The notes under the pieces: model-generated
Databases searched by the model: none
What the model was told of the DNA's origin: nothing
What the model saw: the letters and a program-made list of their open reading frames with translations, nothing else
Assembly (NCBI GenBank): GCA_020849765.1
Contig: JADLAY010000017.1
Span: 44,906 to 108,905 of the forward strand
Reading direction: 5' to 3'
Length of the DNA stretch: 64,000 bases
From: Anaerolineae bacterium
GTDB taxonomy: Bacteria; Chloroflexota; Anaerolineae; Aggregatilineales; Phototrophicaceae
Part shown: positions 1,613 through 39,313 of the stretch, piece by piece
Numbering within the stretch: the stretch's first letter is position 1
Layout: each line of letters opens with the position of its first letter
Translations under genes and position numbers: made by a program

Positions 1613-1813
1613 TCAGCCGGTTTGACGCACTTCGTCGTCTTCGTCCCAGGCACCGCGTTCCTGGCCCTCGCCGAGCAGGTGCGAGCGGGCTTCGACGACC
1701 TGTTCGAAGTCAACCGGAGCCGGAGCGATCCTGGCGACGCGAGCGTCTTCACCTGAGCCGTCGACCACTTTCGTGCCGAGCGCATCATTCGGGCGGAAGT
1801 TGTCGTGGGTCAT
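1613..1813 (-). CDS. Small acidic protein, 66 aa (paralog A of 2021-2329)
   Basis: ATG 1811-1813 (MTHDNF..) is preceded by GCAAGGAAAACGATC. C-terminus SHLLGEGQERGAWDEDDEVRQTG is nearly identical to that of the neighbour. The listed 81-aa ORF was trimmed to the ATG with an RBS. Confidence 0.6.
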   Translation of the reverse strand: MTHDNFRPNDALGTKVVDGSGEDARVARIAPAPVDFEQVVEARSHLLGEGQERGAWDEDDEVRQTG

Positions 1814-1864
1814 GATCGTTTTCCTTGCCGGGATAGATGTGCAAAATTTCACAATCAAACCCGT

Positions 1865-1915
1865 ATTAAATCGGAAAACGTGACCCTTCGCAAAGGGATT
1901 GTGACATTTGTCACT
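1865..1915 (-). promoter_or_regulatory. Putative promoter of small-protein gene A with an upstream CRP/FNR-like palindrome
   Basis: Minus strand: TTGCGA (plus 1888-1893), 17 nt, TTTAAT (plus 1865-1870). TGTGA-N6-TCAC lies at 1900-1915, 6 nt upstream of the -35. The same layout recurs before paralog B. Confidence 0.4.
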
Positions 1916-2020
1916 AACGAAAACGGCGATCAGGTGACGATCTGCCGCCAGCGGAGTTGTGCTGCTGGGCGCTCGCCGATCGATCCTGAGCGCCGCAGCA
2001 GTCTTCGTCAGATGCGACGC

Positions 2021-2329
2021 TCAGCCCGATTGGCGAACGTCGTCGTCTTCATCGGCCTTGCCGCGTTCCTGCCCTTCGCCGAGCAGACGTGAGCGCCCCT
2101 CGTCGTGATCTTCTTTGTCCGGTGACTTCGTTGACGCTTTGACGTCACGGACGTCTTCGCCCTCGTCGTCGTTCGCTTCATTCTTCTTGCCAAAGGCGTA
2201 GTCACCGTGCGGATCGTCGTCCGCCTTGCTCGCTGGTGTGCGCCCACGCCAACTCACGGACGTCGTATTCTGCAGCGGCGGCGCTTCCTTGTCCTTGCCG
2301 TCCTTCGGCTTTTGTTTGTCGTCGCTCAT
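2021..2329 (-). CDS. Small acidic Lys/Asp/Glu-rich protein, 102 aa (paralog B)
   Basis: These are the last 102 codons of the listed 363-aa ORF. ATG 2327-2329 (MSDDKQK..) is preceded by GCAAGGAAACCATC. C-terminus is SRLLGEGQERGKADEDDDVRQSG. The rest of the 363-aa ORF overlaps the GT4 gene out of frame. Confidence 0.6.
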   Translation of the reverse strand: MSDDKQKPKDGKDKEAPPLQNTTSVSWRGRTPASKADDDPHGDYAFGKKNEANDDEGEDVRDVKASTKSPDKEDHDEGRSRLLGEGQERGKADEDDDVRQSG

Positions 2330-2375
2330 GATGGTTTCCTTGCTGGATATGACCGTAAAGATTACGACCTTCCCG

Positions 2376-2424
2376 ATCTTAGACCGAAAATGCGCTGCCG
2401 CAAAGGACTTGTGACCTATCTCGC
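2376..2424 (-). promoter_or_regulatory. Putative promoter of small-protein gene B with a half-conserved CRP/FNR-like box
   Basis: Minus strand: TTGCGG (plus 2398-2403), 16 nt, TAAGAT (plus 2376-2381). TGTGA-N6-TCGC lies at 2410-2424, again 6 nt upstream of the -35. Confidence 0.35.
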
Positions 2425-3543
2425 TCCCTGCTGGGTGACCCAGCGGTAGACGGCGTCGATCTGCTCGACCATCGCCGCGAGGCTGAGCGATTCCGCTGTC
2501 CGTCGCGCCTCCACCCGCGCCGCCGCCAGCCGCGCCGGATCGTCGAGCAAGCCCCGGATGGCCGCCGCCATCGCCCCGGCATCGCCCACCGGCACGGCGA
2601 CGCCCAGGCCGCGATGATCCGGCAGCATGCCGACCGCGGTGCCGACTGTGGGCAGGCCGCAGGACGCCGCTTCGAGCGTCGCCAGCGGGCCGGTCTCCGT
2701 CCAGGTTGCCATCAGGTGCAGCGCCGCGCGCCGGTAATGGGCGGGCAGGTCGAGGTGATCGACGCGCCCGATCCAGCGCACGCGCTCGGCCACGCCAAGC
2801 TCGACCGCCAACCGTTCGAGCCGCCCCCGCTCCGGGCCGTCGCCGATCACCTCGAGCGTCACGTCGGCGGGTAGCAGCGCCAGCGCGCGCAGCAGCAGCG
2901 CCTGATCTTTGATCGGGATCAGTGAGCCGACGTGGATCAAACGCCGAGGGTCGTAATCGCCGCCGGGCGTGAAATGATCCGTATCGACGCCGAGACAGAC
3001 GCGCTGCAAACGCTCGGCAGGCACGCGATAGCCGGCCCGCCCGATCAGGCCGTCGCTGTAGGCACAGGTCGAGAGCACGGCATCTGCCCGCAGCGCCTGA
3101 CCGACGATCCACCGGCTGAAGCGCGAGCGCTGCAAGCCGTAGCCGACTTCGGGGAAGCTGACCAGTTCACCGCCCAGGATCGAGACGACCGACGGCAGGC
3201 CGAGCTGCCGCCCTGCCCAGGCGGCCAGCGCGCCGGTCTCATCCGCCCACAGGCCATGGAGCAGATCGAACGGCGCCTCACGATGGAGCCGCCGGATCAC
3301 CCGCAGCGCATCGGCCCACAGCAGCAAACGACGCGCGCCGCTGGCTTGCGCCCAGCCAAGCGCCGTCACACCGACGCCGTCGATGCGATAGCGGTCGCGC
3401 CGGTGTGGATAGCGCAGGGCGATCACGTGGACGTCGTGCGTCTCGGCCAGCCGCGCGATCGTGCGCCGCCAGACCGGCAGCGCCCAGTCGGTCTCGTCAG
3501 TGCTGTGGCCGGGGATCAGGATGCCGACGCGCAAGCGCTTCAC
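2416..3543 (-). CDS. Glycosyltransferase, GT4 (Glycos_transf_1-type)
   Basis: 375 aa. N-terminal Rossmann start MKRLRVGILIPG. C-terminal GT1/GT4-like region (..HVGSLIPIKDQ.., ..EASCGLPTVGTAVGMLPD..). 4-nt overlap with the upstream GT39 gene. Confidence 0.8.
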   Translation of the reverse strand: MKRLRVGILIPGHSTDETDWALPVWRRTIARLAETHDVHVIALRYPHRRDRYRIDGVGVTALGWAQASGARRLLLWADALRVIRRLHREAPFDLLHGLWADETGALAAWAGRQLGLPSVVSILGGELVSFPEVGYGLQRSRFSRWIVGQALRADAVLSTCAYSDGLIGRAGYRVPAERLQRVCLGVDTDHFTPGGDYDPRRLIHVGSLIPIKDQALLLRALALLPADVTLEVIGDGPERGRLERLAVELGVAERVRWIGRVDHLDLPAHYRRAALHLMATWTETGPLATLEAASCGLPTVGTAVGMLPDHRGLGVAVPVGDAGAMAAAIRGLLDDPARLAAARVEARRTAESLSLAAMVEQIDAVYRWVTQQGAR

Positions 3544-9648: not shown

Positions 9649-10986
9649 TTATGGAAGCCCCAACCCTCCTGGCAATCCGCCGCCACCGCCGCCCGTCACA
9701 TTGTTGACCACGTCGTTGACGTTTTCGACCACCGGGTCGACGACGCCACCCGTATCGCCGCCGGTCGTCTCATTCACGGTTTCGACGACCGGATCCACTA
9801 CGCCGCTGGTGCCGCCGGTATCCGCGGAATTGAGCACGTCGTTGACCGTATCGACCACCGGGTCGACGACGCCGCCCGTATCGCCGCCGGTCGCGTCATT
9901 CACCGCGTTGACGACCGGATCAATCACGCCGCTGGTGCCACCGCCCGTGCCCGTGGAGTTGAGCACGTCGTTGACCGTATCGACCACCGGGTCGACGACG
10001 CCGGTCGTATCGCTGCCGGTCACGCCATTCACGGTGTCCTGAACGCCGTTGACGATCGGGTCGATGACATTGCCCGCGCTATCGACGACCGGGTAGACGA
10101 TGTTGCCTGCGCTATCCACAACCGGCTCGATGATGTTGCCCGCGCTGTCGACCACAGGCTCGATCAGGCCGATATCGACGATGCTCGGATCGATGGTCGA
10201 GACGACGCCGGTGATCAGGTCGATGAGCGAGTCGGTATCGCTGATAGTGTCGTCGACGATAGTCACGACCGGAACATCCGAGCAATCACCGCCGACGGTC
10301 ACGTCTGAGACGGAGATGAGGCCGGTCGTGCCGTTATCATTGATCAGCAGCAGATCGCCCGTATCGACGCTGCCGACGACGGCCACAGGCGCTTCCGTGC
10401 CGACGGCAATCGCCGAACCGCCGCCTGAACTCGTCTGGATCGAGACGCCCGTCCCACCATTAGAACCCGCCAGGCACGACGTACTGGTCAGGTCGATGCC
10501 ACCCTCGATCAGCAGCGAGCCGTCGGCGGTCGTCGCCATCGAGGCCAGCAGGTCGAAGTTCTCTTCTGAGCAGGCAATGTCATTCGGATCGCCGGTCATC
10601 AGCATGAGGCCGTACCACTGCGCCTGCTGCGGATTCTGCGCCACGACATTCAACACATAGTTGGCACTACCGGGCACGATGCGCAGGCACATACCGCTGA
10701 CGCCGAGCTTCGCCATCATGACGTTCTCCAGCGTCAACTGGTCTGAGATGATGACGTTGAGCGGGTCCTGGTAGTCCTGGCTGGCCGCCATCACGTAAAT
10801 CGTCTGATTATTGAGCGCAGAGAAACGATACTGGTTGGACATCTGCGCGCCATTTACGTATTCCTGAACAATCTGGCCAAAGGGCAATACTGTGGGTACA
10901 GTCTGCGCGCCAGCGGGCTGAGCCAACAGCAGACTTACGAGCGATAGCATAATGAGAGCGACGAGGTAAGGTTTTTGGAGCCGCAT
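9649..10986 (-). CDS. Secreted protein with a C-terminal array of DPVVDxVN-type repeats, function unknown
   Basis: ATG 10984-10986 (MRLQKPYLVALIMLSLVSLLLAQPAGAQT is a signal peptide). The C-terminal ~165 aa are built of [IV]-[DE]-P-V-V-[DE]-x-[VA]-N units with Gly/Thr linkers, ending GGGGGLPGGLGLP. Confidence 0.7.
   Translation of the reverse strand: MRLQKPYLVALIMLSLVSLLLAQPAGAQTVPTVLPFGQIVQEYVNGAQMSNQYRFSALNNQTIYVMAASQDYQDPLNVIISDQLTLENVMMAKLGVSGMCLRIVPGSANYVLNVVAQNPQQAQWYGLMLMTGDPNDIACSEENFDLLASMATTADGSLLIEGGIDLTSTSCLAGSNGGTGVSIQTSSGGGSAIAVGTEAPVAVVGSVDTGDLLLINDNGTTGLISVSDVTVGGDCSDVPVVTIVDDTISDTDSLIDLITGVVSTIDPSIVDIGLIEPVVDSAGNIIEPVVDSAGNIVYPVVDSAGNVIDPIVNGVQDTVNGVTGSDTTGVVDPVVDTVNDVLNSTGTGGGTSGVIDPVVNAVNDATGGDTGGVVDPVVDTVNDVLNSADTGGTSGVVDPVVETVNETTGGDTGGVVDPVVENVNDVVNNVTGGGGGGLPGGLGLP
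9652..10190. repeat. Coding tandem repeats (about 33-nt and about 60-66-nt units)
   Basis: Repeated gtcgacgac(g/c)cc.. / caccgggtcgacgacgcc.. blocks. Protein level: EPVVDSAGNII x3, then TGGDTGGVVDPVVDTVNDVLNS-like x about 6. Confidence 0.7.
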
Positions 10987-18329: not shown

Positions 18330-19367
18330 ATGGCATACGGCAATCGTATGAACTTCTACGGCCACACAAGCCTGATGGAAGGGTCGGTGAATATGAGTTT
18401 GGAGACATCTCACGTGCAGTTGGCGCAAGCGATGGCACATCTCGAAAAAGATGAAACAGCCGAAGCGTTGCGCTTGCTGAATGACCTGATTGAAAAGGTC
18501 GACCTCCTCGACGCGCATCGTTTGCGCTTCACCATCTTGATAAAACGAATCGACAATCCCCATGATCTACGCGCATCACTGGACGTGTTGCGAACGGAAG
18601 CCCCTGATATATACAGCGCCGGGTTGGTGGAACTCGAGACTCAAATTCACAATCGTTTGAGCGAATTGCAGGACGGGATTACCGAAGCCACGCAGCGTGC
18701 CGAGATGCAGTCGTACCTCGACGAATACGACGCACTTGTGGTGTTGAGCGACCTGTTCCCCGTCATTCAGGTTGCCCGTGGGCTGGGCTATATGGCCGCC
18801 GCTCGCATCAGGGACAAAAAGGGGCAACCGGGCACCGAATCCCCCTACGAACATCTGCGGAGATTGCTCGCTAAAGACATGGCGGTCCCTTTCATGCGCG
18901 AACGTAATGAAACGGACAGCGTCGACGATACACAGGCCGAAAGGTGGCGCATGACCGCAGAACAGGCACTGTCTGCGGCGCTGATTTCCTTAACGCCGAA
19001 TCATCCATCCGTTGTCGAGATCCATGAAGTCTTAGGGATGCTCTACGAGGGCATGCATGAATACAGCAAGGCACTGCGGTCCTTTCAGGCCGCAATAGAG
19101 CACGGCAGCAGCAACATGGAGGACAAGGTACACGAACTCACAACGAAGATCAAACAGGAAACAGAGCGTCTGGCACTGGAGCGAGTCGATTCACTCCTGG
19201 CGAACCAACACCTGGACGAAGCCGAAACCTGCCTGGCGGAGTATGCGCCAGATGCGTTGACCGATGCCTGGCACTTACGTTATGCGGAACTCGCATTGCT
19301 ACGTGGTGACCGCGAAACAGCAATGCATCACTACGCCCTCATCCTGCCCCTTGTCCACAACAAATGA
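18330..19367 (+). CDS. All-helical, TPR-like repeat protein, function unknown
   Basis: 345 aa with natural composition in a lower-GC patch. Start uncertain (ATGs at 18330, 18348, 18375, 18390). The stop is 15 nt before the next gene's ATG (AAGGAG RBS), so an operon. Confidence 0.6.
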   Translation: MAYGNRMNFYGHTSLMEGSVNMSLETSHVQLAQAMAHLEKDETAEALRLLNDLIEKVDLLDAHRLRFTILIKRIDNPHDLRASLDVLRTEAPDIYSAGLVELETQIHNRLSELQDGITEATQRAEMQSYLDEYDALVVLSDLFPVIQVARGLGYMAAARIRDKKGQPGTESPYEHLRRLLAKDMAVPFMRERNETDSVDDTQAERWRMTAEQALSAALISLTPNHPSVVEIHEVLGMLYEGMHEYSKALRSFQAAIEHGSSNMEDKVHELTTKIKQETERLALERVDSLLANQHLDEAETCLAEYAPDALTDAWHLRYAELALLRGDRETAMHHYALILPLVHNK

Positions 19368-19382
19368 GCAAGGAGATACCTG

Positions 19383-22124
19383 ATGGACTGGAATGATCCT
19401 TTCGTTGTGAGTAAAGCCTACGCGAAACTCCGCTCCATCGATCCGCCTGTCAATGCCGGATCAGATGCGGCTGTCCTTCCTCACGTGGCATTCAACGTGC
19501 CCGCCGATGACGTCAGGCGCCGAGCGCTTGCGGGTGTGCTTCATCTTCATCGCCAGGGTCGCCAGCAGTTTGATTTTCTGCCGCACCTGGAGACAGCCCT
19601 CCTATATGGCGACTTCGATGAGGAGACCAAACGCACGCTGCGCGCTGAAATCCGGGCGATTGAACGCGAGCGCCAGCAAGCTGCTTTTGCGACGATTCGC
19701 AGACTCAAGCGGAAGAAACTGCATGTCCAACCGAAACGCCGTTCGACAACCCGCCAACCCGCATCGTTTGTGATGCAGGTGACCGACGATAGCTGCATCG
19801 TCCGCTTTGGCTACCGGCTCACTAACGTGCGCGCAGTGCGCTTTGACATGCCCGTCGAGGCGGAAGGCGCGGCGTTACTCAGAACGCTGACTCAGGCTGT
19901 TGAAATCTGGAAAGACCGCCTCAGCCTGGGCCTTGAAGCTGACTTTACCTGGCGCTATTCCAGCGAGGCTCACCGTGTGAATCTGGAGTTGCTGGTTGAG
20001 CTTCATTTGCCGGAACCTGAAATGGCGGAGGAAGTCGTTCGTGGCCTACAAACCATCATTGAAAACCAACAGCCATTTCCCGAAGTCTATCATTTTGCGC
20101 GAATCGTCGAAAGGAAGCATCTTAAGAATTTCTACGGCAGCACATCGTTTGCCAGCGTCGCGGAGATCGTGCGCCATGAAGGTGTGATGGAGTATGAAGG
20201 GAAGAACCTCTATGTGATCTTTCCGGTGAAGGTGGATAGCGACCGCTTACACGATCTCATGGTCTACCTGCGTAGCGCAACGGATGGCAACGTCATCGAC
20301 ATCAAGATACGCCCCTCTGCGGTGACGCGCTCAGAGATCGATGCCGCTCTCGAGGCTATCACCATTGGCGTGAGTTATTATGACGAGGACAGCGAAGAGA
20401 TTCGGCTGAAAATGTCGGAAGGCGCGATCTTTGACCATCAATGGCTGAAAGCGCTGGATGCTTACCGGATGATGCTTTCCCAGATCCACAGCCAGGCTTA
20501 CGAAGTGCGCCTGCGTGTTGCCAGCAAAACGGATATCGACATCTTGCCGCTCGCCACGTTGGCCGGGCGTTCGCTCCTTGGCCTGGGAGCCTTCGACGTG
20601 ATTCCGGCGGCCTATGGTGCTCGGTCAATCGCCCTTGACGATCTGTCACCTCGCACCCGCGCCCCGGCAGAACTATCTCGGTTGCGCCGCATGTGGTCGC
20701 TTGTCGAAACAGCTTTTGTCACCCGCCTGCCACGACCATCTGCGGCGGGCATACCGGGAATCCCAATGACCCAGGTTAAGCCCCACCGGATACCCTCCGG
20801 GCTGCCTGAAGAGGGCTGTGTACTTGGACAGGTCACATCACAGGGAGAAACCACACCCACCCTGGTAAAACTACCTTACGTCGACCGCACACGACATGTC
20901 TATGTCGTCGGCCGAACCGGCACCGGCAAAACGACCATGCTGCATAACATGGCGCTGCAAGACATCGAAAATGGGCATGGTGTTGGGGTGATCGACCCCC
21001 ATGGCGACTTGATCGATGCGTTGTTGGAGCGCATACCGCACCATAGAGCCGGGGATGTTGTCCTGTTTGACCCTGGGGATATCTCGCGCCCGGTGGGTTT
21101 GAATTTGCTCGACGTGGAGGGCCCCATTGCGCAGAATTTGGCTGTCGCCGATTTTATTGGCTTGATGTACAGCATGTACGATCCGGGCCACACCGGGATC
21201 GTCGGCCCTCGATTCGAGCAAAGCGTGCGCAACAGCATGTACACCGCGATGGCAATACCCGGTGCGACCATCATCGACGTGCTGCGCATTATTAGCGATA
21301 ACCGGTACAGTCACGACGTCCAGAAGTATCTCACCGATCCGATTGTCAAAGACTATTGGGAGAAGATATACGACAGCCAGAGTGACTTTCATCGCAGCGA
21401 AGTCAAAGACTACATCACCAGCAAGTTCAGCCGCTTCACATCCGATCGTATGGTGCGGCAGATTATCGGCCAATCCAAGACCAGTCTCAATTTCGCCGAC
21501 ATTTTCAACAACAAGAAGATTCTGCTCGTCAATCTGGCGAAAGGGCGTATCGGCGAGTTCAACAGCCAGTTCCTGGGCTTCATTCTCGTATCGCAATTGT
21601 TGATTGCCGCATTCCAACGTGTGAACCAGGCTGTTGATCTGCGTATCCCATACTATCTGTACATTGATGAGTTTCAGAACTTCGCCACACCCGGCCTGGG
21701 GGCCATGCTTTCGGAGGGGCGAAAATATGGACTGGCGCTCACGCTGGCGCATCAATTCATCCATCAGCTGGATGTCAAAATCCGTGAAGCGGTTTTCGGT
21801 AACGTAGGCACTATCTGCGCTTTCCAGGTTGGGTTGCAGGATGCAGAGTATCTGGCTCGCGAGATGTACCCCGTCTTTGGCACTGACGATCTGGTCAATT
21901 TGCCAGCATATCATGCCGCGTCCAAGATTTTGGCGCACAAACAGACCCTGATGCCGTTTGTGATGCAGACGCTGCCCGAACAGAATCAGCCGCGAAAGGA
22001 AGTTGCTGACGCCATCCGGACTTTCAGTGGCCTGACATATGGGAGTAACGCGGCTGTCGTCGAAGACAACATTCGCGCTCAATTCGCGCTGCCCCTACAG
22101 AAACGTATGGAGCTGCTGACCTGA
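19383..22124 (+). CDS. Large P-loop ATPase of the HerA/FtsK/VirD4-TraD type with an unrecognised ~480-aa N-terminal region
   Basis: Walker A VVGRTGTGKTT (about nt 20905-20940), then VGVIDPHGDL. Walker B-like YYLYIDEFQNF. EGRKYGLALTLAHQ (TraG-D_C/HerA-like). No TM segments. Confidence 0.75.
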   Translation: MDWNDPFVVSKAYAKLRSIDPPVNAGSDAAVLPHVAFNVPADDVRRRALAGVLHLHRQGRQQFDFLPHLETALLYGDFDEETKRTLRAEIRAIERERQQAAFATIRRLKRKKLHVQPKRRSTTRQPASFVMQVTDDSCIVRFGYRLTNVRAVRFDMPVEAEGAALLRTLTQAVEIWKDRLSLGLEADFTWRYSSEAHRVNLELLVELHLPEPEMAEEVVRGLQTIIENQQPFPEVYHFARIVERKHLKNFYGSTSFASVAEIVRHEGVMEYEGKNLYVIFPVKVDSDRLHDLMVYLRSATDGNVIDIKIRPSAVTRSEIDAALEAITIGVSYYDEDSEEIRLKMSEGAIFDHQWLKALDAYRMMLSQIHSQAYEVRLRVASKTDIDILPLATLAGRSLLGLGAFDVIPAAYGARSIALDDLSPRTRAPAELSRLRRMWSLVETAFVTRLPRPSAAGIPGIPMTQVKPHRIPSGLPEEGCVLGQVTSQGETTPTLVKLPYVDRTRHVYVVGRTGTGKTTMLHNMALQDIENGHGVGVIDPHGDLIDALLERIPHHRAGDVVLFDPGDISRPVGLNLLDVEGPIAQNLAVADFIGLMYSMYDPGHTGIVGPRFEQSVRNSMYTAMAIPGATIIDVLRIISDNRYSHDVQKYLTDPIVKDYWEKIYDSQSDFHRSEVKDYITSKFSRFTSDRMVRQIIGQSKTSLNFADIFNNKKILLVNLAKGRIGEFNSQFLGFILVSQLLIAAFQRVNQAVDLRIPYYLYIDEFQNFATPGLGAMLSEGRKYGLALTLAHQFIHQLDVKIREAVFGNVGTICAFQVGLQDAEYLAREMYPVFGTDDLVNLPAYHAASKILAHKQTLMPFVMQTLPEQNQPRKEVADAIRTFSGLTYGSNAAVVEDNIRAQFALPLQKRMELLT

Positions 22125-37119: not shown

Positions 37120-38775
37120 ATGCCTAGTGCATTCATCTCTTATCGCCGCGTCGAAAGCGCTGCCCTTGCCACGCTGATCGCCGTCACCTTGCAAGACAAG
37201 CATGGCATTGAAGTTTTCGTCGATACCCGCAGTACCGACGGTGGTGGCCTGTTTCCTGACCGCTTGCGCCGCGCCATTGAACATTGCGACGTATTCGTTT
37301 GCCTGCTTGGCGCGACGACGCTGGAATCCGCCTGGGTGATGGAAGAGATCGAACATGCGCATAACTTGCGCAAGACGATGATCCCGGTCTTCCAGGAACG
37401 TTACGTTCCGCCCAACCCAATTCCCAGCGTACACGTCGAAGCACTGCTGCAATCGGATGGATTGCAGGTTCTTGATGTGCGCAACGTGTACGTCGATCAA
37501 GCTATCTCCGACTTGGCGTCAATGATCAGAAGATCCGTCGGTGCTCCAATGCCGCCGCCCAGGCGAGGCATCGGGTTACCTCTGATTGCCGCAGTCTTGG
37601 TGTTGCTCGCGTTAGTCGCCCTTGGCATCTTCCTGGTGTCTCGCGCCATGGAATCCCCCACTTCAACAGCCAGTCCGACACAGATCGCGGGTGGTGTGAC
37701 CGCCAGCACCACCATCGAGCAACCCACCGCTGCACCGACAGAAGATGCGGCTGGCACACGGGTCGCCCAATTGCAGGCCAGCCTGACCGCCTTGGCGCAA
37801 CTTCAAATCGTAGGGGAAGAAACCGCGACGGCGGACGCCGCAACGCGTGGTGCTGCTGCACAAATCGATGCGACTTTGCGGGCAGCCGCGGACACCGCGA
37901 CCGCGGCTGCCCTCGCTATCACGCAATCCGTATTGGGTGAAACGGCGACTCAGCAAGCCATTGACGCGACCGCGATAGCTAGTGTATCGACAGATACTCC
38001 CACCCCATCCGCGACACCTACGCCTATCACACTGGAATATGCTTACGCCCAGGCAGTAAATTATGATGATGGTCAGGGAAATACGGCATGGACGCCTATT
38101 GCATATACGTTTGGGGATGGCGTGACGATGGTTCTAGTACCGACGGGCTGCTTTTTGATGGGTAGCAGCGAAGGTAATATTAACGAACAGCCCATCAATG
38201 AGCAGTGCTTTGTCGTGCCATTCTGGATCGACCAGACTGAAGTGACACAGGCCGATTTTGTACGTCTGAGTGGACAAAAGGCGGCCCCGAATGAATTTCC
38301 TGCTGACCAACACCCCGTTGAGAATATCACTTGGTTCGAAGCACGTAATTTCTGCGTGTTGCGGGGTGCGCGCTTGCCAACAGAGCGCGAATGGGAATAT
38401 GCAGCCCGCGGCCCTGAAGGATGGATCTACCCATGGGGAAACATGTGGGACACGAGCTATGCTGCATGGAACCGGAGTAGATCGCAAAGAACCGCCATCG
38501 TGGGAACAGCATCAAATGGGGTTTCCTGGGTCGGTGCACAGGATATGAGCGGCAACGTCTGGGAGTGGGCGAGCTCCCTTTACCAGCCGTACCCCTATGC
38601 GGCAGACGATGGACGAGAGGGGGATATGAGAGACCTTGCGGATGCTCAACGTGTGTTGAGAGGCGGTTCTTGGTACTACGTCAGTACTATTGGCCTACGC
38701 GCGCCTACGCGCAGCGGACTCGACCCAATAGCCAAAGACAATCTATTAGGTTTCCGTTGCGCCCGCGATGTCTGA
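37120..38775 (+). CDS. TIR domain - TM - Ala/Thr-rich linker - FGE-sulfatase (SUMF1-like) domain fusion protein
   Basis: TIR_2-like FISYRRVES..CDVFVCLLG..SAWVMEEIEHA. TM IGLPLIAAVLVLLALVALGIFLV. C-terminal WIDQTEVTQADF, ENITWFEARNFC, RLPTEREWEYAARG, RVLRGGSW, GFRCA. Confidence 0.8.
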   Translation: MPSAFISYRRVESAALATLIAVTLQDKHGIEVFVDTRSTDGGGLFPDRLRRAIEHCDVFVCLLGATTLESAWVMEEIEHAHNLRKTMIPVFQERYVPPNPIPSVHVEALLQSDGLQVLDVRNVYVDQAISDLASMIRRSVGAPMPPPRRGIGLPLIAAVLVLLALVALGIFLVSRAMESPTSTASPTQIAGGVTASTTIEQPTAAPTEDAAGTRVAQLQASLTALAQLQIVGEETATADAATRGAAAQIDATLRAAADTATAAALAITQSVLGETATQQAIDATAIASVSTDTPTPSATPTPITLEYAYAQAVNYDDGQGNTAWTPIAYTFGDGVTMVLVPTGCFLMGSSEGNINEQPINEQCFVVPFWIDQTEVTQADFVRLSGQKAAPNEFPADQHPVENITWFEARNFCVLRGARLPTEREWEYAARGPEGWIYPWGNMWDTSYAAWNRSRSQRTAIVGTASNGVSWVGAQDMSGNVWEWASSLYQPYPYAADDGREGDMRDLADAQRVLRGGSWYYVSTIGLRAPTRSGLDPIAKDNLLGFRCARDV

Positions 38776-39313
38776 TTGCGACCACACTTACCCCCAGCGC
38801 AAATCGCCTCGTCTCCGCGACTATGATTACGCACAATCCGGTGCATATTTCGTCACCATCTGTACCTATCGACGTGAGCATCTCTTTGGCGAGGTCGTCG
38901 ATCAACAGATGCATCTGTCGCGGATGGGATCGATTGCTCATGACCTGTGGTACACCATCCCCGATCATCATTCGCAGGTCGAACTCGATGCGTTCGTCGT
39001 CATGCCCAACCATGTCCACGGCATCATCGTTGTAGGGACGCCGCGTGCGGCGTCCGGCGGCGAGAATGATGGGCGATCGGCGGACAGGGCACGCCCTGTC
39101 CCTACGGAATCGCTCGGAGCGATCATCGGTGCGTACAAGTCCGCCGTGACACGCACCGTCAATCAGGCGATGAGGTTGGTCGCGCCGACGGTCTGGCAGA
39201 CGCGCTATGACCATCACATCATTCGCAGCGAGCACGATCTAGACCGCATCCGCGCCTACGTCGCCGACAACTCCGCGCGATGGCTGGATGACACGCTGTT
39301 CACAAAAGGATAG
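38768..39313 (+). CDS. REP-associated tyrosine transposase (RAYT, IS200/Y1 HUH family)
   Basis: YDYAQSGAYFVTICT, HUH motif MPNHVHGIIV, VWQTRYDHHIIRSEHDL..YVADNSARW. The ATG overlaps the upstream stop (ATGTCTGA). Carries its own REP doublet in-frame. Confidence 0.8.
   Translation: MSDCDHTYPQRKSPRLRDYDYAQSGAYFVTICTYRREHLFGEVVDQQMHLSRMGSIAHDLWYTIPDHHSQVELDAFVVMPNHVHGIIVVGTPRAASGGENDGRSADRARPVPTESLGAIIGAYKSAVTRTVNQAMRLVAPTVWQTRYDHHIIRSEHDLDRIRAYVADNSARWLDDTLFTKG
39032..39105. repeat. REP doublet (REPIN-like) inside the RAYT CDS
   Basis: GTAGGGACGCCGCGTGCGGCGTCC (39032-39055) and GGACAGGGCACGCCCTGTCCCTAC (39082-39105) in inverted orientation. Translated as ..GTPRAASGGENDGRSADRARPVPTE.. Confidence 0.7.

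Follow-up and report, generated by a model that had tools for sequence, protein, structure and literature searches.

Two adjacent genes for small acidic proteins with a shared C-terminal motif form a lineage-restricted orphan family in Anaerolineae

A 64-kb stretch of contig JADLAY010000017.1 (hereafter the window), from an Anaerolineae bacterium metagenome-assembled genome, carries two adjacent minus-strand genes, A and B, for small acidic proteins with a common C-terminal tail. Both were found to be genuine coding genes under purifying selection and, with their homologs, to make up a lineage-restricted orphan family. Alignments of the DNA around them indicate that A is a truncated tandem duplicate and that B has the ancestral form, and the proteins are predicted to be intrinsically disordered. 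The favored joint reading, given a probability of about 0.6, is that of a disordered, acidic orphan pair arisen by duplication, hydrophilin-like and/or docking through its motif, with A under an extra regulator. An initial annotation of this DNA had pointed to the pair, and every feature it placed was recovered at its position. The two genes are given below as called by NCBI; loci from relatives are denoted L001–L010 and the family proteins by P numbers (P0001 and so on).

1613-1813, minus strand: gene A, 66 amino acids (aa); NCBI IT320_06320, hypothetical protein of exactly the same length
2021-2329, minus strand: gene B, 102 aa; NCBI IT320_06325 (P0001), hypothetical protein of exactly the same length

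The paralogy of the two genes, as first proposed, was borne out by BLASTP, with 30 identical residues over 58 (52%) and an E value of 7e-15. The 23-residue tail described as common to both, S-[HR]-LLGEGQERG-xx-DEDD-[ED]-VRQ-[TS]-G, is present exactly as written, but the homology is in fact wider. In a multiple alignment with orthologs it also takes in the N-terminus, M-x-x-D-x-x-x-P-x-D-(G)KDK, and a central GE[DE][AV]R island. In the same alignment A corresponds to B minus about 36 internal residues. The islands of B are the N-terminal DDK..P.D.KDK, VSWRGRTPASK, DYAFG, GEDVRD.K and the C-terminal SRLLGEGQERG..DEDDDVRQSG. Orthologs of B showed 54–59% identity, and those of A are P0004 (60% identity) and P0009.

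Purifying selection was seen in the ratio of nonsynonymous to synonymous substitution (dN/dS, Nei–Gojobori). This was 0.14–0.31 among the B-type proteins, with a synonymous divergence (dS) of 0.83–2.1, 0.36–0.44 among the A-types (dS 0.55–0.79), and 0.25 for A versus B. The codons of LLGEGQER vary synonymously among genomes, near saturation inside the motif, and from this variation it follows that selection acts on the protein rather than on an element of the DNA or RNA. The GC-rich genome is full of spurious open reading frames (ORFs), and short ORFs such as these might have been non-genic, with the repeated tail a DNA or RNA element. That explanation is effectively refuted by dN/dS values well below 1 and by synonymous change near saturation in the motif codons, and it is credited with almost no likelihood. 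Conservation also extends to the start codons and the ribosome-binding sites, a search of Rfam over positions 1400–2700 gave only sub-threshold noise, and the seven family leaders yielded no consensus RNA structure (−0.01 kcal/mol). A six-frame regular-expression search of the window and all loci detected no further paralogs.

One ORF in the region is indeed spurious, as the initial annotation had recognized. It overlaps a glycosyltransferase (GT) gene of the GT4 family:

2021-3112, minus strand: 363-aa ORF, a spurious 5' extension of B that crosses the GT4 gene in another frame
2416-3543, minus strand: GT4-family glycosyltransferase, 375 aa, the upstream neighbor; Pfam Glyco_trans_1_4 (2.8e-25) and Glycos_transf_1 (1.8e-23)

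The GC contents of the three codon positions (GC1/2/3) in the extra part of this ORF are 0.80/0.74/0.53, compared with a GC3 of about 0.85 in real neighbors, and the NCBI call at this place is the 102-aa protein.

Three word-indexed searches of 5.8 billion protein clusters brought the family to a total of seven distinct proteins. All carriers are related Anaerolineae/Aggregatilineales assemblies, with one contig labeled Aggregatilineales. By the presence of the internal segment the proteins are referred to as follows:

B-types: window B, P0002, P0007 and P0008 (87 aa, without the VSWRGRTPASK island)
A-types: window A, P0004 and P0009

When 1.84 billion 50%-identity representatives were searched exhaustively with an HMMER profile, the only hits were the three family clusters and two long repeat proteins. 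The repeat proteins were rejected as relatives, since the motif is missing from them and they matched only the low-complexity middle of the profile. A back-translated motif scan recovered one locus, previously known, from the GTDB species genomes, and 63 chance 9-mer matches with no relative among them from the JGI metagenomes. Neither A nor B matched a Pfam family at E up to 1 or an NCBIfam family at E up to 10. PADLOC gave no match, the single function-unassigned PHROG at E 0.2 was regarded as noise, and a PDB sequence search gave no match to the family profile or to the 26-aa tail. The remark that no known family has the LLGEGQERG tail thus holds for Pfam, NCBIfam, PADLOC, PHROGs and PDB. 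Homologs with the motif, for which a search had been advised, do exist, but they amount to only seven sequences from one clade. A and B are members of a lineage-restricted orphan family.

The proteins of this family are predicted to be disordered throughout. AlphaFold2 with the family alignment gave a mean predicted local distance difference test score of 57.7, a predicted template modeling score of 0.12 and no secondary structure. Isoelectric points (pI) range from 4.2 to 4.8 and net charges from −6 to −19; Cys is absent, aromatic residues number one to three, and no signal peptide or hydrophobic segment was found in the family proteins. Window A has a pI of 4.43, a Gly content of 10.6% and a hydrophilicity index of 0.82. 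The corresponding values for window B are 4.67, 9.8% and 1.83. The description of the two proteins as small and acidic (66 and 102 aa, pI 4.4–4.7) is therefore accurate.

In being small, hydrophilic, Gly-rich, disordered and free of Cys, A and B resemble hydrophilins and late embryogenesis abundant (LEA)-like proteins, such as group 1 LEA Em, B. subtilis GsiB, E. coli YciG and Z. mobilis Zmo0994. Hydrophilins are defined by a hydrophilicity index above 1 and a Gly content above 6% (Garay-Arroyo 2000, as cited in PMC7448490). By this definition, Gly is above the cut-off in all seven family members (6.3–10.6%), and the B-types (4/4) fit on both counts, with 6.8–9.8% Gly and hydrophilicity indices of 1.66–1.83. 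Of the A-types, P0004 passes the hydrophilicity cut-off (1.83), and window A (0.82) and P0009 (0.95) lie below it. A and B differ from hydrophilins and LEA proteins in having no Pfam LEA_5 or KGG match and no internal tandem 20-mer repeats, and in their strong acidity, where those proteins are near-neutral. A faint resemblance links the motif xLGEGQE to the QLGEEGY core of LEA-1.

Size (about 60–100 aa), acidity, disorder and a conserved C-terminal half with a Q near its end are also features of Pup and UBact, a superficial likeness on which A and B could be regarded as disordered modifiers conjugated through the C-terminal region. Pup ends in GGQ or GGE. The proteins described here differ in their termini, which are RQSG, RQTG, RQSS and RQLS, and no Pfam or NCBIfam model was matched even at E up to 1–10. 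In addition, no Pup-ligase, Dop or proteasome genes were found among the approximately 45 window ORFs scanned. A Pup-like role is considered highly improbable.

The origin of A was traced by aligning all of the upstream regions. The features concerned are the following:

1916-1960, minus strand: degenerate relic of the GT4 3' end, copied along with B in the duplication from which A arose
1865-1893, minus strand: putative A promoter; -35 TTGCGA (1888-1893), 17-nt spacer, -10 TTTAAT (1865-1870)
2376-2403, minus strand: putative B promoter; -35 TTGCGG (2398-2403), 16-nt spacer, -10 TAAGAT (2376-2381)
1849-1857, minus strand: leader element TGATTGTGA, at or just past the inferred A start site
1819-1829, minus strand: A ribosome-binding region GGCAAGGAAAA, 7 nt before the ATG (1811-1813)
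2336-2345, minus strand: B ribosome-binding region AGCAAGGAA, preceding the ATG (2327-2329)
1962-2001, minus strand: GC-rich stem-loop directly after the B stop codon; −28.8 kcal/mol, z −2.1, no U-tract
1900-1915: box A, TGTGACATTTGTCACT, GTGAC-N4-GTCAC, 6 nt upstream of the A -35
2410-2424: box B, TGTGACCTATCTCGC, 6 nt from the B -35; 8/10 match to TGTGA-N6-TCACA

The sequence upstream of A in L007, TCTCAGCAGGTCATCCGGCG-ATAG, matches the genuine GT4 end of L001, TATCAGCAGGTCACCCGGCG...TAG, and the stop codon TAG of the relic falls within the left arm of box A. The duplicated unit therefore begins inside GT4, takes in the promoter and leader, and stops where B ends. These alignments identify A as the truncated copy. 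The common -35, spacer, -10, leader element and ribosome-binding site are accounted for by descent through this duplication. The pair has the same context in L007 as in the window lineage, so the duplication predates their split. In the lineage of L001–L006 and L009, a pectin-acetylesterase-like gene follows B at the place where the window has A. The initial annotation had taken the shared layout for a conserved promoter/operator architecture. The layout is present at both genes, but it was inherited through the tandem duplication and does not represent two independently maintained operators.

Most of these elements are also conserved between genomes. The L007 counterpart of the A promoter reads TTGCGG-16-TAAGAT. 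The B promoter, TTGCGG-16-TAAGAT in the window, is conserved as TTGCGG-16-TATGAT in the L001 and L009 orthologs, and in L007 its -35 has diverged. The initiation contexts are GGCAAGGAAAACGATCATG (A) and AGCAAGGAAACCATCATG (B), and the A ribosome-binding region is conserved in L007 and paralogous to the B site. TGATTGTGA is identical at 9/9 positions between the window and L007, and a GAT(T/C)GTGA-like element was aligned in all seven family leaders, A- and B-type (window 1849-1857 and 2357-2366; L001, L007 and L009). In some of the leaders an inverted repeat, AAGAT-N13-ATCTT, is made up of the -10 region together with an ATCTT further downstream. A hairpin of different sequence occupies the matching place after B in L007 (−30.6 kcal/mol, z −3.1). 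A consensus scan for terminators found none at threshold. The stem-loop after B may be a transcript end or a stabilizer separating B from A, and its presence in both the window and L007 is consistent with separate A and B transcripts.

Box A had been called a near-perfect CRP/FNR-type palindrome, and this is a fair description. Read as TGTGA-CATTTG-TCACT, it matches the CRP-type TGTGA-N6-TCACA at 9/10 consensus positions and forms a perfect GTGAC/GTCAC inverted repeat, the sole exact GTGAC-N4-GTCAC in the 64 kb. Its L007 counterpart, AGTGACAAAAGTCACA at 9904-9919, likewise lies 6 nt from TTGCGG and is identical at 15/16 positions, with the single change in the spacer. Over the 115 aligned columns that precede box A, identity between the window and L007 is only 40%. 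With 15/16 positions kept against this flank identity, at a dS of about 0.8, box A stands out as a clear phylogenetic footprint, conserved at the A ortholog in L007. Box A shares with CRP/FNR operators its consensus match, its inverted repeat and its conservation in a relative, and is a probable operator for a dimeric transcription factor. By count alone the pattern is no rarity: within the window, TGTGA-N6-TCRC occurs three times, compared with 1.3 expected, and 9/100 shuffles reach three. The weight of the boxes and promoters comes from conservation in relatives and not from within-window statistics.

Box B fared differently. Its distal arm lies in GT4 coding sequence, where it is made up of the last Arg codon plus the stop (2416-2418), and A-type upstream regions have 8 extra nt, which complete the palindrome. 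At this position the three B orthologs (L001, L009 and L007) have GCCGGAATGAC, GTCGAAATGAC and GCGGCATCACC instead of the box. As it is absent there, box B is not a conserved operator; degenerate, in contrast to CRP/FNR operators, it is probably a half-site remnant. The proposal of an operator at B is thus abandoned, all the more since absence of the box upstream of orthologs had been named at the outset as the observation that would speak against it.

A further palindrome was noted outside the window, past the far end of a gene for an 884-aa PTPS_related membrane protein that follows A. This 30-bp perfect palindrome, GAGAGGTTGTGATAG/CTATCACAACCTCTC, is identical in L007 (13478-13507) and L001 (16089-16118). 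About 100 nt separate it from a downstream 57-aa gene, after which comes an OB_ChsH2_C (DUF35-like) gene. At the core of the palindrome is a perfect CRP-type TGTGA-N6-TCACA (TGTGATAGCTATCACA), so CRP-type sites exist in this lineage, and the palindrome suggests that a TGTGA/TCACA-binding regulator operates in it. A resemblance of EGQERSAW in E. coli CRP to EGQERGAW in window A was dismissed as coincidence, since the family does not conserve the AW.

The favored reading combines these observations as follows. The GT4 3' end, promoter, leader and B were duplicated in tandem to give A, which then lost about 36 internal codons. Transcription of each gene probably starts at a weak sigma-70-type promoter of its own. 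Box A is most likely the target of a dimeric regulator that, judged by the sequence, would be CRP/FNR-like, and this putative input would make A, and not B, signal-dependent. As a tentative best guess, the proteins themselves would serve as hydrophilin-like cytoplasmic protectants and/or dock through the C-terminal motif on a conserved partner.

Several points weigh against this reading. Both promoters are weak consensus matches, below the threshold of a 9/12 sigma-70 consensus scan. The conservation of box A rests on two genomes, the window and L007, and at the third A-type locus, L010, the entire upstream region has been replaced. Canonical activating positions of CRP/FNR are centered at -41.5, -61.5 and so on. 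Box A differs in this respect, as its center falls at about -49.5 (window) or -48.5 (L007) when the inferred -10 is taken as the reference, with an error of about 2 nt. No CRP-family gene was found in the window, either by phmmer with an approximate E. coli CRP query or by the Pfam scan of about 45 ORFs. As for bulk protection, two of the three A-types just miss the hydrophilicity cut-off. Finally, conservation is confined mainly to short islands. The strongest of the conserved motifs is the C-terminal LLGEGQER, followed by the acidic patch and then [VI]RQ, and eight tail residues are invariant within otherwise fast-evolving sequence. Short conserved islands are typical of disordered proteins that bind partners by linear motifs, and such strongly conserved islands in a disordered protein make specific partner binding likelier than bulk protection.

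In an alternative reading, A and B would not be bulk protectants but act specifically, as regulators or adaptors. Docking on a defined partner would occur through the C-terminal motif and, in B, through VSWRGRTPASK and DYAFG as well. Candidate partners are the neighboring envelope-glycan enzymes (the PMT-like GT-C, the GT4 or the 884-aa PTPS_related membrane protein) and core machines such as RNA polymerase or the ribosome. Besides the invariant tail residues, gene order speaks for it. The window and L007 share the order MFS, Polysacc_synt flippase, GyrI-like, MerR/GyrI-like, PMT-like GT-C, GT4, B and A, with the 884-aa gene convergent after A in both. The GT4 neighbor recurs in synteny in L001–L007, and all sufficiently long loci keep the arrangement PMT - GT4 - B - (A) - 884-aa gene. 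Even in the rearranged L010, a 1.1-kb contig, a 63-aa A-type gene still abuts the end of the 884-aa gene. Nevertheless, synteny among the relatives exceeds 10 kb and reaches GH5, TIR-beta-helix and H+-PPase genes, and adjacency may be simple inheritance. The proteins are also without signal peptide or hydrophobic segment, and the profile and tail searches gave no PDB or family precedent. Such an adaptor role is possible, but it is held with low confidence.

In L010 (560-790), the DNA upstream of the A-type gene consists of AT-rich sequence and a divergent 183-aa ORF with no Pfam or PHROG match. Palindromes, for example ATGTGCATTT-G-AAATGCACAT, and recurring ATGTACAT motifs are found in the AT-rich DNA. 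Across the 884-aa gene from the pair, an extremely basic 56-aa protein (MASKDYPRSPERRKKRHTREEERVAKREERRQKK...) is conserved in L001 (14350-14520) and L007 (13102-13272); it is thus another small, charged and conserved protein of this neighborhood, with a sequence unrelated to A and B.

The initial annotation had placed the pair in a glycan-biosynthesis cluster and had advised that its conservation beside GT genes be looked for in relatives. The tandem of A and B does recur there, in L007, and the location is fairly described. A functional link does not follow, as synteny runs far past the cluster. Since its more than 10 kb take in genes that are otherwise unrelated, adjacency to GT genes is weak evidence for a connection with glycan synthesis. 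The proteins might be glycosylation substrates of the neighboring glycosyltransferases: B lies directly after the GT4 and PMT-like genes and has a conserved Ser/Thr-containing island, TSVSWRGRTPASK. PMT-type enzymes act at the outer face of the membrane, whereas A and B have no signal peptide or export signal. The island is missing from A and P0008, and B has its own promoter-like element. We regard a substrate role as unlikely.

Overall, the explanations are ranked with a protectant or motif binder first and a specific adaptor second, ahead of a Pup-like tag, a glycosylation substrate and non-genic ORFs, all three of which are unlikely. A more far-reaching proposal, rated as improbable, is that the tail is an undescribed docking or processing motif through which the disordered pair controls a conserved partner, for example the adjacent GT-C/GT4 machinery for envelope glycan, with the duplicated copy A under a cyclic-nucleotide- or redox-sensing CRP/FNR-type regulator. 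Were the docking-motif reading true, the pair would be a small new regulatory module and not generic stress filler. The favored reading, if true, would provide a clean example of a gene for a disordered protein that was duplicated with its promoter and then gained a regulatory input. It would also add a seven-sequence orphan family from a poorly studied Anaerolineae/Aggregatilineales clade to the bacterial hydrophilin-like proteins. No long-standing question is opened by it, and the narrow family and uncertain function limit its impact unless the C-terminal motif binds a conserved partner.

Elsewhere in the window, three further regions with lowered GC3 were noted. On the minus strand, 54638-56148 is a low-GC3 island (about 0.5, compared with about 0.85 for the genome) encoding two proteins, one of 167 aa with a TIR_2 domain and one of 331 aa without Pfam match, which may be a horizontally acquired defense-type pair. 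On the plus strand, 37120-39313 encodes a 551-aa fusion of TIR and FGE-sulfatase-like domains with a GC3 of 0.58, followed by an IS200-like Y1 transposase fragment. Also on the plus strand, 18330-22124 holds lower-GC3 genes (about 0.65) for a 345-aa protein without Pfam match and a 913-aa HerA/TrwB-like ATPase, and this gene pair may be part of a mobile or defense element.

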